A DNA stretch of 64,000 nt from an uncultured virus (IMG/VR IMGVR_UViG_3300035682_000026) (taxonomy: Duplodnaviria; Heunggongvirae; Uroviricota; Caudoviricetes): the IMG/VR virus record IMGVR_UViG_3300035682_000026. One strand, given 5' to 3'. Positions 3,465 to 48,707 of this stretch are shown here, in pieces (position 1 is the first letter of the stretch; each line of letters starts with the position of its first letter). The translations under genes and the position numbers were made by a program. Below the pieces are notes generated by a model, which was not told the DNA's origin, made no database searches, and was given only the letters and a program-made list of their open reading frames with translations.

Positions 3465-3498
3465 AAAAAAACCCAGTTTAGATTTCTCTAACTGGGTT
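3465..3498 (-). terminator. attenuator terminator of tRNA operon 1
   Basis: AACCCAGTT-AGAGAAATCTA-AACTGGGTT followed by U tract. Confidence 0.9.
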
Positions 3499-3522
3499 AA
3501 TAAATAATACTTGCGTATTGTT

Positions 3523-3624
3523 TTACTTTATCATGTTTGACTTCATGACATACCCAGTTGTGCCTTGAGGCGTTCCGCCTTTAGGTTGATACTGTTTCGT
3601 TTGATATGTTTTTGTTGTCATCAT
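3523..3624 (-). CDS. leader peptide 1 MMTTKTYQTKQYQPKGGTPQGTTGYVMKSNMIK
   Basis: Between promoter and terminator; residues 3-25 all T/K/Y/Q/P/G. Confidence 0.85.
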   Translation of the reverse strand: MMTTKTYQTKQYQPKGGTPQGTTGYVMKSNMIK

Positions 3625-3659
3625 TGTTTCTAATTGTTGTGGGTTTTCCCCGTTTGTTT

Positions 3660-3701
3660 AATAAATATATGCAAATATACGAATGTTTTTCATTTAATCA
3701 A
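3660..3701 (-). promoter_or_regulatory. Bacteroidota-type promoter (TTG...TATATTTG) plus TATTTAT motif, tRNA operon 1
   Basis: Matches TAnnTTTG -7 consensus; near-identical to the operon 2 promoter. Confidence 0.8.
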
Positions 3702-3765
3702 GTTTTTTTTTAACTTTTTTTAATAAAAAATCATTTTATTATTTAAATCCTTGATATTAAAGGGT

Positions 3766-12282: not shown

Positions 12283-12456
12283 TTATACTCTTTTATTTAG
12301 AATTTCAAGTTCATTATTGATTCTTTTGATATCAGAATCTGTCAAAGGAACTTTAACATCCGTTGTTTTCTTTTTGGTTTTTACACCACTTTTTAATTGC
12401 TTTTCAAGCATTGTAATTACTCTAGACTGTCTAGAACGTTTTGCAGCTGTTGCCAT
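12283..12456 (-). CDS. small basic hypothetical protein (57 aa)
   Basis: MATAAKRSRQSRVITMLEKQLKSG... Confidence 0.55.
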   Translation of the reverse strand: MATAAKRSRQSRVITMLEKQLKSGVKTKKKTTDVKVPLTDSDIKRINNELEILNKRV

Positions 12457-12477
12457 AGTATTAAATTTAAATATTAG

Positions 12478-12551
12478 TGGTGCGAGATGGATTTAAACCA
12501 CCGCCACCTAGCTTTTCAGGCTAGTGCTCTATCAGGCTGAGCTATCGCACC
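12478..12551 (-). tRNA. tRNA-Phe(GAA), second copy
   Basis: Stem CTAGC/GCTAG, loop CT-GAA-AA; T loop TTTAAAT. Confidence 0.85.
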
Positions 12552-12776
12552 TTTAATGGATAAACATTTCCAAGTGTCTATCCTTAGCAGTTTTTATATC
12601 TAGCATTGGCTGAAAACTACAAAACCAGTTCAATTTTTACTCTTGGAAGAGGGATAGTTGAACTCCAACCCAGTTGATATGGTACAACTATTAAACCCCG
12701 AACTTGAGTTGTCGGCAACTCTACGTAATCCTAACATTAAACTTCCTAGGTTTTAATGAAATTCTTACACACATTG

Positions 12777-12853
12777 TGGAGAAAGCAAGAATCGAACTTG
12801 CGACCTACGGACCCAATAAAGTGACCACATTCTGCCAACTGATATATTTCCCC
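12777..12853 (-). ncRNA. tRNA-like RNA with irregular anticodon arm
   Basis: Acceptor GGGGAAA/TTTCTCC and T arm good; anticodon arm poorly paired. Confidence 0.6.
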
Positions 12854-12993
12854 ATTTGTTAGTTATGTCTGTAGGACTTCTGACATAATTCCCTATGATT
12901 ATCTTTTTACAACCCCTCATAGAACTAACGTTTTTATTTATGCAAATATATACATAACATTTCAATTAAACAAGTTTTTATTAAACTTTTTTT

Positions 12994-13887
12994 TTAAATT
13001 AATTCTATTTTGCTTAAAGGTGCCCATGTATAACCATCCTCATAAAATCCCTTATCTTGTTTTTTCACTTCTTTTTTAAATGATAATATATGTGATGCTC
13101 TTTGATTAACTAATCTACCCTCAATTGAATGACTAAATTTACTTCTATCATTTAAATAATGTTTAACTGGAACTTTATAAACTTTAGAAATACATTTTTT
13201 CAAAGTTTCAGCTAATTTCTCACTAACCGTAGCCATAGTTTGGTTACCTCTTTTATCAATGTAACCATCACCACTAAAATAACCTTCTAACATTTTTTCT
13301 AACATGTCAATTGGCATATTTATCACGTCATCAGGTATAAATTTACCATAAGAATAACGACCAAATTTATTCAAGAACTCCCATAATTCAGTATTATGTA
13401 TTGTAAATTTATATACTGTTCTTTCTTCAGATATTGTGGCAGTATATTGTAAATCACTAAGACGTTTTTTCACATATTCAAATTCATGTTTACCACAACA
13501 TAACACAACTTTATGTATATAACCGTTTCTCCTATTTTTCCTTTTATAAGAAATAACCCAACCATCAGCTATTACTCTACCTACAAACCACCAAAAATTT
13601 TCATCATTTAAATTTAAATCATTTTTTACTTTTGTGGTTAAATAATGTGGGTTTGCTACTTCAACACCATCCCACATTATTGGTATTGATTTTTGGTTTA
13701 TTTCAGTACCAATATAATCATTTTTAGTGATATCTTTTAATTCTTTTATTATTGGTGTTTTAAATAAACGTTGACGGATTTGTTTACCATCAACATATGG
13801 GAATTTAAAATACTTTTCCCTAGTTAAAAACTTAGTTTCTATTGGTAAGATTTGTTCTATTATTCCGAACCCTTTAATTTTTATCAT
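12994..13887 (-). CDS. free-standing LAGLIDADG endonuclease of intein (DOD) type
   Basis: FVGRVIADG and MLEGYFSGDG motifs. Confidence 0.85.
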   Translation of the reverse strand: MIKIKGFGIIEQILPIETKFLTREKYFKFPYVDGKQIRQRLFKTPIIKELKDITKNDYIGTEINQKSIPIMWDGVEVANPHYLTTKVKNDLNLNDENFWWFVGRVIADGWVISYKRKNRRNGYIHKVVLCCGKHEFEYVKKRLSDLQYTATISEERTVYKFTIHNTELWEFLNKFGRYSYGKFIPDDVINMPIDMLEKMLEGYFSGDGYIDKRGNQTMATVSEKLAETLKKCISKVYKVPVKHYLNDRSKFSHSIEGRLVNQRASHILSFKKEVKKQDKGFYEDGYTWAPLSKIELI

Positions 13888-13947
13888 ATTTTTTTTTACA
13901 AACATACAATAAAAATATAATTAATACAATAAAAAATATAAAATTTG

Positions 13948-14020
13948 TTGAGGAAGAGGGTTTCGAACCCTACACTACCACCCGTCTAGGTGGCCTTCTA
14001 ACCAATTAAAGTATCTCCCA
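13948..14020 (-). ncRNA. tRNA-like RNA with 6-nt anticodon loop
   Basis: D and T arms present; CCACC-TAGACG-GGTGG. Confidence 0.6.
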
Positions 14021-14115
14021 AAATTACCAGATGTTACCAGATAGAATTTAAAATATCTGTTTTTATCTGTGTTTTCACGCTTTCTCTGTAAATAAAATTA
14101 CCAGAGGTTGCCAGA

Positions 14116-14385: not shown

Positions 14386-14913
14386 TTATTCTGACACATA
14401 CTTAAATGTCGTTAATTCAAATTTGTACCAAATTGTCCTAGACCAATCACTAGCTGCCCATGCTTTAAACTTAGGCCATTTAGTTATTAAAGCTTGTTTG
14501 AATGGTTCTATTTCTTTTTTAACATTTTCATTAGCTTCATTTAGAAACGTAATATAAACTTCCCTATTTTCTTTGTTAACAGTTTTTCTTCTTTCTCTTT
14601 CAAGTGTAATTTCTGGAAAAGCTGTTTGAACATTTTTAAAACCCAACGGTGTTGTTGGTGGATATTTTGGCTCACGCTCATTCAACATTTCAACCCCAGT
14701 AACTTGTTCAAATGAAAGATTTGCTTTATATATTTGTTTAAATTCACGTAATTTTTCTTCAAATGATTCAACATCTTTGTTATATTCCTCAACACTATCA
14801 TTCATACTTTTTACATATTCTTTACCATCGATTGATGGGTCTAAAACACATACAATGAATTCACCTTCTCCTGGTTCTGAATAACTAATCGCTTCAATTC
14901 TATTATTTTTCAT
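14386..14913 (-). CDS. hypothetical protein
   Basis: ORF with TATCTTTG promoter upstream. Confidence 0.65.
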   Translation of the reverse strand: MKNNRIEAISYSEPGEGEFIVCVLDPSIDGKEYVKSMNDSVEEYNKDVESFEEKLREFKQIYKANLSFEQVTGVEMLNEREPKYPPTTPLGFKNVQTAFPEITLERERRKTVNKENREVYITFLNEANENVKKEIEPFKQALITKWPKFKAWAASDWSRTIWYKFELTTFKYVSE

Positions 14914-14982
14914 ATCTAACAATTTTAATTAGGGTACAAAGATAATCATTAATTTCAATTAAACAAATTTATTTTTTTTTTG

Positions 14983-15055
14983 TGGAGCTACTCGGACTCG
15001 AACCGAGTTCTGCTGGGTGCAAGCCAACTATTTTTGCCTGGTAAACTATGGCCCC
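14983..15055 (-). tRNA. tRNA-Ala(TGC)
   Basis: G3-U70, loop CT-TGC-AC. Confidence 0.9.
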
Positions 15056-15058
15056 AAT

Positions 15059-15109
15059 TTTCTAATTCTACGCTTACAATATGTAGTTCTATGAATTAGT
15101 AACAGTCTC
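15059..15109 (-). ncRNA. inter-tRNA structured motif, copy 2
   Basis: Same conserved flanks as 2896..2953, different inner hairpin. Confidence 0.55.
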
Positions 15110-15116
15110 ATCTGTG

Positions 15117-15188
15117 CGGTCTATGACGGTAACGCTCCGTCTACTCAACAGTGACAGTGTTGGATGATAACTTTTTCACCAATAGACC
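15117..15188 (-). tRNA. tRNA-Asp(GTC)
   Basis: Loop CT-GTC-AC, G73; atypical T loop AGCGTTA. Confidence 0.85.
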
Positions 15189-15196
15189 AATTTTTG

Positions 15197-15268
15197 TAGC
15201 CCCACGGAGAATCGAACTCCGATTTACTGGTCGAAAACCAGTCGTCCTAACCGTTAGACGATAGGGCC
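15197..15268 (-). tRNA. tRNA-Glu(TTC)
   Basis: Stem ACTGG/CCAGT, loop TT-TTC-GA. Confidence 0.92.
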
Positions 15269-15424
15269 AAATTTGGAAGGTACTGCCTTAGAGTGACACC
15301 TTCCAGGAGCGTTCTTGACAAGAACACACAAGACCATCGAATCTTACGATTTCCATTGGATTAATGCTTTCAGTTGTTCTCGTACAACTGATACCCTTCG
15401 ATACTGGTAAGTAAAACGCTCTAG

Positions 15425-15498
15425 TGGACCCCCTCGGACTCGAACCGAAACCTCTAGTTCTTCAGACTAACGTGACACACCATTTACACCAGAGGTCC
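15425..15498 (-). tRNA. tRNA-Phe(GAA)
   Basis: Loop CT-GAA-GA, acceptor GGACCTC/GGGGTCC. Confidence 0.9.
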
Positions 15499-15513
15499 AA
15501 TTATTTATTGCAT

Positions 15514-15543
15514 AAAAAAAGCCTGACTTATTAGGTCAGGCTT
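15514..15543 (-). terminator. attenuator terminator of tRNA operon 2
   Basis: AAGCCTGAC-CTAATAA-GTCAGGCTT followed by U tract. Confidence 0.9.
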
Positions 15544-15568
15544 ATCATTTTTATTATTAACTTAAACG

Positions 15569-15655
15569 TTAACTTATGACAGTGTTTGACCTTCCTTGTG
15601 AGTAATCCTCAAAGGCTGCAGTTTCAAATCTAAAATCGTTAGTTAATGTTCTCAT
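15569..15655 (-). CDS. leader peptide 2 MRTLTNDFRFETAAFEDYSQGRSNTVIS
   Basis: Core DFRFETAAFED has 9 of 11 residues F/E/D/A. Confidence 0.8.
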   Translation of the reverse strand: MRTLTNDFRFETAAFEDYSQGRSNTVIS

Positions 15656-15687
15656 TGTTTTTATTTTAAGGGTTTCCCCGTTTGATT

Positions 15688-15729
15688 AATAAATATATGC
15701 AAATATACGAATGTTTTATTAATAATCAA
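15688..15729 (-). promoter_or_regulatory. promoter of tRNA operon 2
   Basis: TTG...CGTATATTTGCATATATTTATT, as for operon 1. Confidence 0.8.
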
Positions 15730-15775
15730 GTTTTTTTTAAACTTTTTTTTAAATTATTTTTTAAAAGATTGATTA

Positions 15776-16117
15776 TTAGTCTTCTATAGGTTCTAAATTT
15801 ATAATTTTAGCTTGTTTTACTGCTACTTCAGCTTCTTTATCGGTAAGATTTCCAAAGGTAATATCATTAATATCGAACTCAAAAGTGATTAAAACTTCAT
15901 TATCCGCTAATCCTGAGTAATAATTTAAGACATATTCTTTGTTTGGACTCATATAAATTCCGTTTCCTGGCATTGATATTGTTTTACCTAATTCGGGTTT
16001 AAATGTTAACTTTGAATTGGCACCAGCAATAAGAATACCATTTTCATATCTCATTACTTTATAACCAATTTCTTTTCCTAGCCCTTCTTTAAGAAGTTTT
16101 CTAATTAGGTCTTTCAT
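15776..16117 (-). CDS. hypothetical protein with MKxLIxxxLxE N-terminus, possible ART-like fold
   Basis: MKDLIRKLLKEGL; GIYMS. Confidence 0.6.
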   Translation of the reverse strand: MKDLIRKLLKEGLGKEIGYKVMRYENGILIAGANSKLTFKPELGKTISMPGNGIYMSPNKEYVLNYYSGLADNEVLITFEFDINDITFGNLTDKEAEVAVKQAKIINLEPIED

Positions 16118-20228: not shown

Positions 20229-20263
20229 AAAAAAAACCCATTTAATTTGACTTAAATGGGTTT
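20229..20263 (-). terminator. attenuator terminator of tRNA operon 3
   Basis: AAACCCATTTAA-GTCAAA-TTAAATGGGTTT followed by U tract. Confidence 0.9.
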
Positions 20264-20287
20264 CATATTTTGAATGATTAAATTTAA

Positions 20288-20362
20288 TCAACAACCATAA
20301 CCCATCGTGCCCACCACTAGTGAACATAATACAAGGACCAATAACATTGCTAAATTTTTCAT
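20288..20362 (-). CDS. leader peptide 3 MKNLAMLLVLVLCSLVVGTMGYGC
   Basis: Core LLVLVLCSLVV has 10 of 11 residues L/V/C. Confidence 0.8.
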   Translation of the reverse strand: MKNLAMLLVLVLCSLVVGTMGYGC

Positions 20363-20402
20363 TTTTATTTTAATTTTTATGTGGTTTCTACCACGTTGTT
20401 TA

Positions 20403-20443
20403 ATAAATATAAGCAAATATACAAAAAGATTCCTAATAGTCAA
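20403..20443 (-). promoter_or_regulatory. promoter of tRNA operon 3
   Basis: TTG...TATATTTG followed by TATATTTATT. Confidence 0.75.
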
Positions 20444-39921: not shown

Positions 39922-40110
39922 ATTTTATTCTTTTATATCAACAAAGATAATGGTAAACCCACCTTCTTTTTGAAATCTTAATTCACCATGATAACCACTT
40001 GCATCAGCTATCTTTCTATACTTGTCAACTATGAGGTCAAAATCTTTCATTAAGTTAACAGTTTTTTCTTTTCCTAAATTTCTCACTAGATTTCCCATAT
40101 TCATTAAAAT

Positions 40111-40146
40111 AAAAAAACCTGACTAGTTTTGATGTAGTCAGGTTTT
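40111..40146 (-). terminator. attenuator terminator of tRNA operon 4
   Basis: AAAACCTGACTA-CATCAAAAC-TAGTCAGGTTTT followed by U tract. Confidence 0.9.
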
Positions 40147-40168
40147 AATTGTTATATTTTGTTTTGAG

Positions 40169-40270
40169 TTATACTTCCGTACCACCTTGACAATTACACA
40201 TACCTGCTACTGGGCGACTATTACGTCTCCAATTGCTAATCGATATCATATGTATGTTAATTGTTGTCAT
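40169..40270 (-). CDS. leader peptide 4 MTTINIHMISISNWRRNSRPVAGMCNCQGGTEV
   Basis: Residues 4-19 all I/N/H/M/S/W/R. Confidence 0.88.
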   Translation of the reverse strand: MTTINIHMISISNWRRNSRPVAGMCNCQGGTEV

Positions 40271-40296
40271 TTTTTTGTTTGTTTTTAATTTCTTTG

Positions 40297-40327
40297 CAAA
40301 TATACTAACTTATTTAATACAAGTCAA
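40297..40327 (-). promoter_or_regulatory. promoter of tRNA operon 4
   Basis: TTG...TATATTTG. Confidence 0.75.
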
Positions 40328-40415
40328 GTTTTTTGCTATTTTTTTTTTAATCTTTTTGTGTTTATTATTAAATATGTACAAAGATACAAAAAGTTTAAAT
40401 ACTATGCAAGTTTTT

Positions 40416-48249: not shown

Positions 48250-48321
48250 ACTACTATAAAGGACTCGAACCTTTTACCCTCACCCCCAGTGGATGCCGCA
48301 CTTCCCTCATGCTTATAGTAA
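48250..48321 (-). ncRNA. tRNA-like RNA with non-canonical anticodon arm
   Basis: Acceptor TTACTAT/ATAGTAG, AAAGG-TTCGAGT-CCTTT; CATCC-ACTGG-GGGTG. Confidence 0.6.
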
Positions 48322-48331
48322 TATTGTTGAC

Positions 48332-48384
48332 CAGAATCACTTTTTTCCATATAAAGTGTTGTTTGATTGCTGAACTGATTCTTT
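48332..48384 (-). ncRNA. CWGCAA-stem ncRNA, copy D
   Basis: AGAATCA-GTT-CAGCAA...TGATTCT-G. Confidence 0.65.
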
Positions 48385-48469
48385 TGTCAATTTAATTTGG
48401 GACTGTCCAGACTTACAACTCTGCCTTTTGGCTGTCCAAGTTAAATGTCCTGTCCCATAAAATTTATCT

Positions 48470-48707
48470 CAAGATGGTTATTTGTATTTTTCATCCCAGC
48501 GGATTAACCCATTTTACGTCTTCGGCTTTGCTTTGGCGAGAGTTTACTATTATTCAACTACATCCTACTTGCACCTTTTGGGGTGGTTGACGGTTTTCTT
48601 TTGAATGGAGAAATTACCATTTTTTCTAATCATGGGAAGATAAAATATCTTCCATACCAAATTAGCCTCTTAAGTTTGTCTGTTTTTTTGTTGCAGAACC
48701 CATCTTT
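48470..48707 (-). ncRNA. CWGCAA-stem ncRNA, copy E (long)
   Basis: AAGATGG-GTT-CTGCAA...~210 nt...CCATCTT-G. Confidence 0.6.

Follow-up and report, generated by a model that had tools for sequence, protein, structure and literature searches.

A leader-terminator unit ahead of the tRNA-Phe, tRNA-Glu, tRNA-Asp and tRNA-Ala genes of an uncultured phage is conserved among related phages and very probably constitutes a genuine ribosome-controlled transcription attenuator that responds to four amino acids and gates phage tRNA genes, as judged from comparative sequence analysis and RNA folding. The preliminary description of this DNA had proposed an attenuator whose leader core, DFRFETAAFED, precedes these four tRNA genes. 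Core and genes all lie on the minus strand where they had been placed, and the attenuator reading is supported by the conservation of the leader family, the terminator and the pairing that competes with it.

Phage setting and anatomy of the locus

The window, by which we mean the whole analysed stretch of 64,000 nt, is part of a 71-kb virus record (30% G+C) and contains 26 tRNA calls and a tmRNA. It also encodes two RNA ligases, a CCA-adding-type enzyme, an RlaP-family protein, ClpP and a Gp23 domain, and its source is likely a fragment of a Bacteroidota-type jumbo phage; related records reach up to 362 kb. Many window genes are preceded by TAnnTTTG, the Bacteroidota housekeeping promoter consensus, which suggests a Bacteroidota-type host. 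The best protein matches (35-52%) are to uncultured 634-642 kb phages and Tenacibaculum/Lak phages. Comparison of the region, the modal leader and the leader of another tRNA operon of the window (operon 1) with 50,697 phage records by blastn returned tRNA or chance matches only and no cultured relative, and a covariance model scan of the Flavobacterium phage immuto_2-6A region and a 642-kb phage gave no convincing match. Among 185,579 prokaryote genomes the leader pattern had one match, which is not a leader, in a search whose exact pattern would miss diverged host versions. The neighbouring 178-aa protein, used as a query, retrieved one near-identical locus only, and public RNA runs contained <0.2 of the query words.

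The elements of the locus (operon 2) are listed in Table 1. Of 60 related leaders, 55 have the TAnnTTTG motif within the preceding 130 nt and 51 have ATATTTA[TA] upstream. The motif ATATTTAT has 24 minus-strand copies in total, most of them 20-30 nt 5' of a start codon; sites such as 15696, 3668, 20410, 18466 and 2794, often paired with a host-type promoter, make it a candidate phage-specific promoter. Variants of the small 5' hairpin (GGGTTAAAACCC, GGATGAAAATCC, GTAGCAGAAGCTAC and others) are found upstream of many relatives' leaders and are missing in others.

Table 1. Elements of the operon-2 leader region and the tRNA array downstream of it
Feature	Position	Strand	Remarks
Host-type promoter	15700..15729	-	TTG 15729-15727, TATATTTG 15707-15700 (TAnnTTTG); motif observed, use presumed
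ATATTTAT motif, candidate second (phage-type) promoter	15689..15696	-	putative function
Small 5' hairpin GGGGAAACCC	15670..15679	-	family-wide, optional
Leader ORF, 28 codons, MRTLTNDFRFETAAFEDYSQGRSNTVIS	15655-15569	-	A at -3, -6, -12 of start
Control block, codons 7-17, DFRFETAAFED	15605..15637	-	9/11 F/E/D/A
Hairpin 1 (CCUU-UGAG / CUCA-C-AAGG), candidate pause hairpin	15594..15615	-	putative role
Pause-like site G-11 G-10 ... Y-1 G+1	15591-15580	-	3' of hairpin 1
Predicted three-helix antiterminator	15533..15592	-	minimum-energy fold of transcript cut at terminator loop
Antiterminator outer helix AGGUCA / UGACCU	15592-15587 / 15538-15533	-	
Antiterminator helix UGUCAU / AUGAUA	15581-15576 / 15548-15543	-	
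Antiterminator helix GUUAAC / GUUAAU	15573-15568 / 15561-15556	-	over stop codon
Intrinsic terminator, stem AAGCCUGAC/GUCAGGCUU	15514..15543 (stem 15543-15519)	-	9-bp stem, 7-nt loop, seven U; -13.0 kcal/mol
tRNA-Phe(GAA)	15498-15424	-	starts ~15 nt past U run
Structured spacer RNA between tRNA-Phe and tRNA-Glu	15269..15423	-	155 nt; fold -43.1 kcal/mol
tRNA-Glu(UUC)	15268-15196	-	
tRNA-Asp(GUC)	15188-15116	-	ARAGORN only, absent from Rfam matches
tRNA-Ala(UGC)	15055-14982	-	

Rfam scores three of the four array tRNAs (Phe, Glu and Ala), not Asp. The tRNA-Phe of the array has the anticodon loop CUGAAGA with G at position 37; the corresponding loop of a second tRNA-Phe (12477-12551) is CUGAAAA. 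This second gene lies with a tRNA of anticodon TTA (12776-12853) behind a separate promoter on the minus strand (12400-13000), where no leader-terminator was seen. Calls of tRNAs with a TCA anticodon occur inside the F/E/D/A array of relatives. The structured spacer RNA has nine blastn matches among relatives' loci, 77-100% identical, and is thus conserved and movable; no Rfam family matched it. Between tRNAs, a spacer repeat GAGACTGTTACTAATTCATAG...GCGTAGAATTAG with a variable inner stem is present on the minus strand in operon 2 (15056-15115) and in operon 1 (2893-2958), and in ten distinct contexts in relatives' loci. Further downstream, a tRNA-like RNA with an 8-nt anticodon loop (CUAGACGG; 13944-14022, minus strand), for which ARAGORN's relaxed score gives a four-base 'agac', is possibly a four-base or non-decoding tRNA. 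With 22 blastn matches, it recurs behind the F/E/D/A array of many relatives, including L006, L015, L047, L092, L100, L109, L114 and L118. Elsewhere on the minus strand (48250-48700), about 450 nt of non-coding, structured-looking sequence lie behind a promoter, before tRNA-Met and beside the tmRNA, with no Rfam match at gathering score.

Leader codons and the predicted RNA switch in related phages

Eighty loci fetched via the neighbouring RlaP protein form a sample not selected by the leader, which is present at all 20 Phe..Glu clusters among them. A search pattern covering the first nine codons gave 107 partly redundant matches (35 viral, 71 metagenome and one genome). Of these, 96 are leaders; an F/E/D/A tRNA lies no more than 1.8 kb away in 93 of them, and the other three are cut by the contig end. 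The 11 non-leader matches have no tRNA. Once these 11, units duplicated over their first 150 nt and the truncated unit L155 were left out, 63 relatives and the window made up 64 units. Phe, Glu, Asp or Ala account for 299 of the 353 tRNAs called downstream, and the first tRNA belongs to this set in 58 of 61 relatives. In three loci (L061:14741-15669, L090, L142), the terminator and the first tRNA are separated by an ORF several hundred bases long, and the attenuator would gate that gene too.

Taken alone, the window leader has nine F/E/D/A residues in 27 (background 0.231, P=0.15), or nine in 18 over residues 2-19 (P=0.012), and its codon bias is the weakest among the window's four leaders; as this signal is modest by itself, the case beyond chance rests on the relatives. 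In 49 distinct peptides, F/E/D/A fill 320 of 343 positions at residues 10-16, which lie outside the search pattern, and 28 of 441 in the last nine residues, and 430 of 452 substitutions in the control block stay within F/E/D/A. The ORF is open in all 93 tRNA-adjacent matches, and indels between Met and the end of the control block keep to whole codons in all 64 units; after the block, non-triplet lengths in nine of the 64 lead to other C-termini. Translation of the leader is thus suggested by signs in the sequence, namely the open frame, the frame-keeping indels and the A residues at -3, -6 and -12, judged by initiation determinants taken from PMC10798248. The control codons GCC and GAG are rare in phage genes, and part of the conservation of A and E codons can stem from hairpin 1.

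A hairpin with a U-rich tail is present in 64 of 64 units, and the terminator shows both-side changes at eight of eight pairs (0/500 shuffles). Hairpin 1 also covaries, with 20 both-side changes (0/500 shuffles). In the window's clade it is compensated, CCUU/AAGG replacing CCGA/UCGG, an exchange that substitutes Phe for Glu, both members of the F/E/D/A set. The proposed pairing of AGGTCA with TGACCT lies where it had been described, its second strand formed by the top of the terminator 5' arm and two loop bases, and is conserved, but the predicted interaction is longer than the 6 bp claimed and comprises three helices. A window transcript ending in the terminator loop is predicted to form hairpin 1 together with this three-helix antiterminator, whose inner helices straddle the stop codon and which is predicted to block the top of the terminator stem.

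Covariation of this pairing among relatives, which the preliminary description had put forward as a check, was borne out by one measure and not by another. In a register-free swap test over 31 terminator classes, the duplex of each leader with its own terminator averaged -10.9 kcal/mol, compared with -8.35 +/- 0.37 kcal/mol for permuted partners (0/20,000), and a control segment gave 4,036/20,000. Just five of the 31 classes have their own partner in first place, because many share a UGACC core; the classes lessen but do not remove kinship among units, and the mis-windowed leader segment of L173 was retained, which lowers the native mean. In fixed columns, 79.7% of antiterminator cells are paired (0/500 shuffles) and the number of both-side changes is equalled in 15/500 shuffles, while the covariation score is not significant (66/500 shuffles), partly because of register shifts in some lineages. 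RNAalifold on the alignment recovers the terminator only, not the antiterminator, and the window's leader-terminator duplex alone is weak (z -1.7 vs shuffles). Re-pairings are visible among relatives (GGGAGAGUC/GGCUCUCCC, GUGGUCG/CGACCAC, GAUCGAGU/ACUCGAUC and AGGAUGAG/CUCAUUCU), and the pairing is weak or absent in L112, L158 and some others.

For the complete leader, folding favours the terminator over the alternative by 9 kcal/mol (-31.2 vs -22.1), so the switch must be kinetic. The consensus G-11 G-10...Y-1 G+1 is that of RNA polymerase pause sites, and a pause-like site occurs in 56 of 64 units, mostly 21-24 nt past the control block, where the same bases serve antiterminator helices. The greater stability of the terminator would also suit a constitutive leaky brake within a conserved unit that makes a small peptide or small RNA acting elsewhere, as would the well-conserved N-terminus MRTxxNIF, which is owed in part to the search pattern. 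Contigs from three RNA libraries that span leader and terminator (X1: 166 nt, no difference) likewise fit such a product, although they are assembled, give neither strand, ends nor level and may reflect DNA carry-over. We consider this explanation highly improbable: several relatives read the C-terminus in a shifted frame but retain AGGUCA...UGUC, each leader covaries with its terminator, and the peptide composition changes with the tRNA array.

A ribosome covers -18 to +13 around its A site. With this mask, and with the terminator arm counted as held when its top four bases are paired to the leader at P>0.5, the arm is held in 57 of 64 units when the A site is on the last control codon, in five three codons on, in 12 six codons on and in 18 with the ribosome at the stop. 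The corresponding probabilities for the window are 0.99, 0.16, 0.09 and 0.07. The result at the stop depends on the mask, since with 15 nt upstream the window's outer helix re-forms there (0.64 against 0.66). A stalled ribosome is thus predicted to spare the antiterminator and an advancing one to block it. With no ribosome present, 56 of 64 units are predicted to form the antiterminator. The protector of trp/his/phe-type leaders, a 1:2 hairpin hiding segment 2 when the leader is untranslated, was not found; only in the full-length window fold is the strand partly buried.

In the mechanism that we propose, host RNA polymerase would start at the TAnnTTTG promoter and pause after hairpin 1 until a ribosome catches up. 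When the four charged tRNAs are plentiful, the ribosome would pass codon 17 and cover AGGUCA and then both helices around the stop codon; folding predicts that the terminator then forms and transcription ends at 15514. If one of the tRNAs is scarce, the ribosome would wait at codons 7-17, leaving the antiterminator paired to the top of the terminator 5' arm, and transcription is predicted to continue into the tRNAs. Since the product is the missing tRNA itself, the circuit would amount to negative feedback on tRNA supply.

The family might be a real attenuator of which the window copy is decayed or bypassed. Its control block is the most diverged, D-F-R-F-E-T replacing I-F-D-F-A-F-F, besides being the weakest of the window's four. 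Moreover, a further promoter consensus lies past the terminator and ahead of the first tRNA in 22 of 61 relatives, in which the attenuator may simply supplement basal transcription. In the window itself, however, tRNA-Phe begins too close behind the U run to leave room for a bypass promoter, and the frame, the compensated hairpin 1, the three helices and the terminator are all intact. Together with identical or near-identical leaders in other assemblies, this makes decay or bypass of the window copy very unlikely.

Leaders and tRNA arrays

Three sister leader-terminator units precede other tRNA arrays on the minus strand of the window (3465-3700, 20229-20443 and 40109-40330), and each sister leader contains a near copy of its terminator's 3' arm. 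A T/K/Y/Q/P/G leader precedes tRNAs for Pro, Lys, Gly, Gln and Tyr and a tRNA at 1814-1887 read as Thr from its sequence, an L/V/C leader those for Cys, Leu and Val, and an I/N/H/M/S/W/R leader those for Ser, Trp, His, Ile, Met, Asn and Arg; the four arrays of the window divide all 20 amino acids among them. Across the four operons, 53 of 72 leader residues match their own array, whereas random partitions average 18 and reach at most 44 (0/100,000).

A covariance model built from the 64 units and run on five more distant records gave ten matches, seven of which are leaders before tRNAs and three are without leader or tRNA; L202, L208 and L209 were left out, and each tRNA set was taken to end at the next leader. 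Among these distant leaders, E/Y precedes Glu and Tyr, I/G/A precedes Ile, Gly and Ala, Q/D/P precedes Gln, Asp and Pro, and L/N/T/V/C/I/R precedes tRNAs for those amino acids. L203, L206, L207 and L204 (G005-G007), each at 1501, carry such leaders with terminators. In four non-redundant distant leaders, 44 of 80 residues match their own tRNA sets (0/100,000 random sets). The codons thus follow the array, and the earlier suggestion that they are re-tuned is supported across a wider clade in which E/Y, I/G/A, Q/D/P and L/N/T/V/C/I/R leaders accompany other arrays.

These matches also bear on whether the switch senses general ribosome activity, that is, any slowing or shut-off of translation, with the codon match secondary. 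As the antiterminator is predicted in most units even without a ribosome, a general translation block would also open the operon, and the GCC and GAG codons double as hairpin 1. Codon sets that track the downstream tRNAs both in the window and in distant phages, and block substitutions that remain nearly all within F/E/D/A, argue instead for sensing of the four tRNAs and leave a general-activity switch improbable.

Near-identity of the promoter region with that of operon 1, which the preliminary description reported, was confirmed: the 80 nt at 15670-15749 share 90% identity with 3642-3721, and the operon-1 upstream region has GGGGAAAACCC, with one A more than operon 2. The duplication argued from this likeness fails as stated, because F/E/D/A leaders are widespread behind varied upstream regions. 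All four leader families are present in each of the relatives G001, G002 and G003. The window's operon-2 upstream region scores 132 against its own operon 1 and 63-69 against the operon-2 regions of four relatives, and a similar likeness within the genome is seen in G001 (166) and G002 (131) and not in G003 (69). The promoter identity thus looks like later homogenisation or swapping of a promoter cassette rather than a trace of origin. A recent duplication of the whole module from operon 1 is rejected on these scores and on the leader families already present in relatives. That leader and terminator are unrelated to those of operon 1 was too strong a statement: in the ranking given by a model of the F/E/D/A leaders, the window's three remaining leaders come 2nd, 3rd and 5th (rough E 0.0008, 0.013 and 0.047), with two non-leaders interspersed, and the model also picks up L/V/C leaders in relatives with scores as high as 53 bits. 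An ancient common origin of the leader families is plausible on this evidence.

What phages gain from their tRNA genes has long been asked. If a leader reads precisely the amino acids that its own tRNAs carry, selection for supply on demand is implied, which favours tRNA shortage or destruction during infection over a fixed codon-bias supplement. Replacement of tRNAs lost or cut during infection is in our view the most likely main use, with plain amino-acid shortage about evenly matched as the trigger. Slightly less probable than its opposite is a more comprehensive scheme, in which every array is gated by its own leader, all 20 amino acids are tested and each array is on only when its own tRNAs are short, so that the phage would possess an inducible, tRNA-specific counter to tRNA-cutting host defences whose codons are rewritten when arrays are reshuffled. 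The attenuator would make the role of phage tRNAs testable with a 150-nt reporter and extend leader-peptide attenuation to tRNA genes, phages and Bacteroidota-type hosts, and the window would provide four natural sensors jointly covering all 20 amino acids.

Comparison with known attenuation systems

Leader-peptide attenuators include trpL and hisL and the multivalent thrL and ilv leaders, and in pheM-pheST a leader peptide precedes aminoacyl-tRNA synthetase genes. Like amino-acid-operon attenuators, the present locus combines a promoter, a short ORF with control codons, a hairpin within the ORF and an antiterminator opposed to an intrinsic terminator, and as in the thr and ilv leaders one leader reads several amino acids. 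In contrast to these systems, the controlled genes are tRNAs in a phage, with four amino acids per leader and all 20 across four leaders; the biosynthesis enzymes or synthetases that attenuators regulate were not found, the downstream genes being tRNAs. Scores of 20.2 bits for Rfam Thr_leader and 16.7 bits for Phe_leader, where the cut-off is 55, give no family match. In the pheL-pheA attenuator, the 1:2 fold hides segment 2 (PMC3082878). In the phage leader, unlike that scheme, the antiterminator strand begins shortly after hairpin 1, so that read-through and not super-attenuation is predicted for a leader that is not translated.

His leaders precede hisS paralogues in bacilli (PMC2965389). 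As with such leaders of synthetase genes, ribosome stalling would report a shortage of charged tRNA and raise a component of the translation machinery, but here the output is tRNA and not synthetase, and the unit is phage-borne with Bacteroidota-type host signals. T-box riboswitches share with the phage locus a terminator/antiterminator switch set by the charging state of tRNA (PMC7778990); sensing here is predicted to proceed via a translated ORF and not by direct tRNA binding. A T-box or other Rfam element was rejected as an explanation: the window contained no T-box match at gathering score, nor did 14900-15800 when E values up to 10 were allowed.

Phage tRNAs have been proposed to replace host tRNAs cut or depleted during infection (PMC10264068). 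The accessible part of that source, like those of PMC2965389 and PMC7778990, describes no such demand-sensing control of phage tRNA arrays, whereas in the present phage each array has its own predicted sensor. A search of largely open-access literature found no leader-peptide attenuator of tRNA genes or phage tRNAs. In its predicted mechanism the system agrees with known leader-peptide attenuators, from which it departs in having tRNA genes as its target and in lacking the protector fold.
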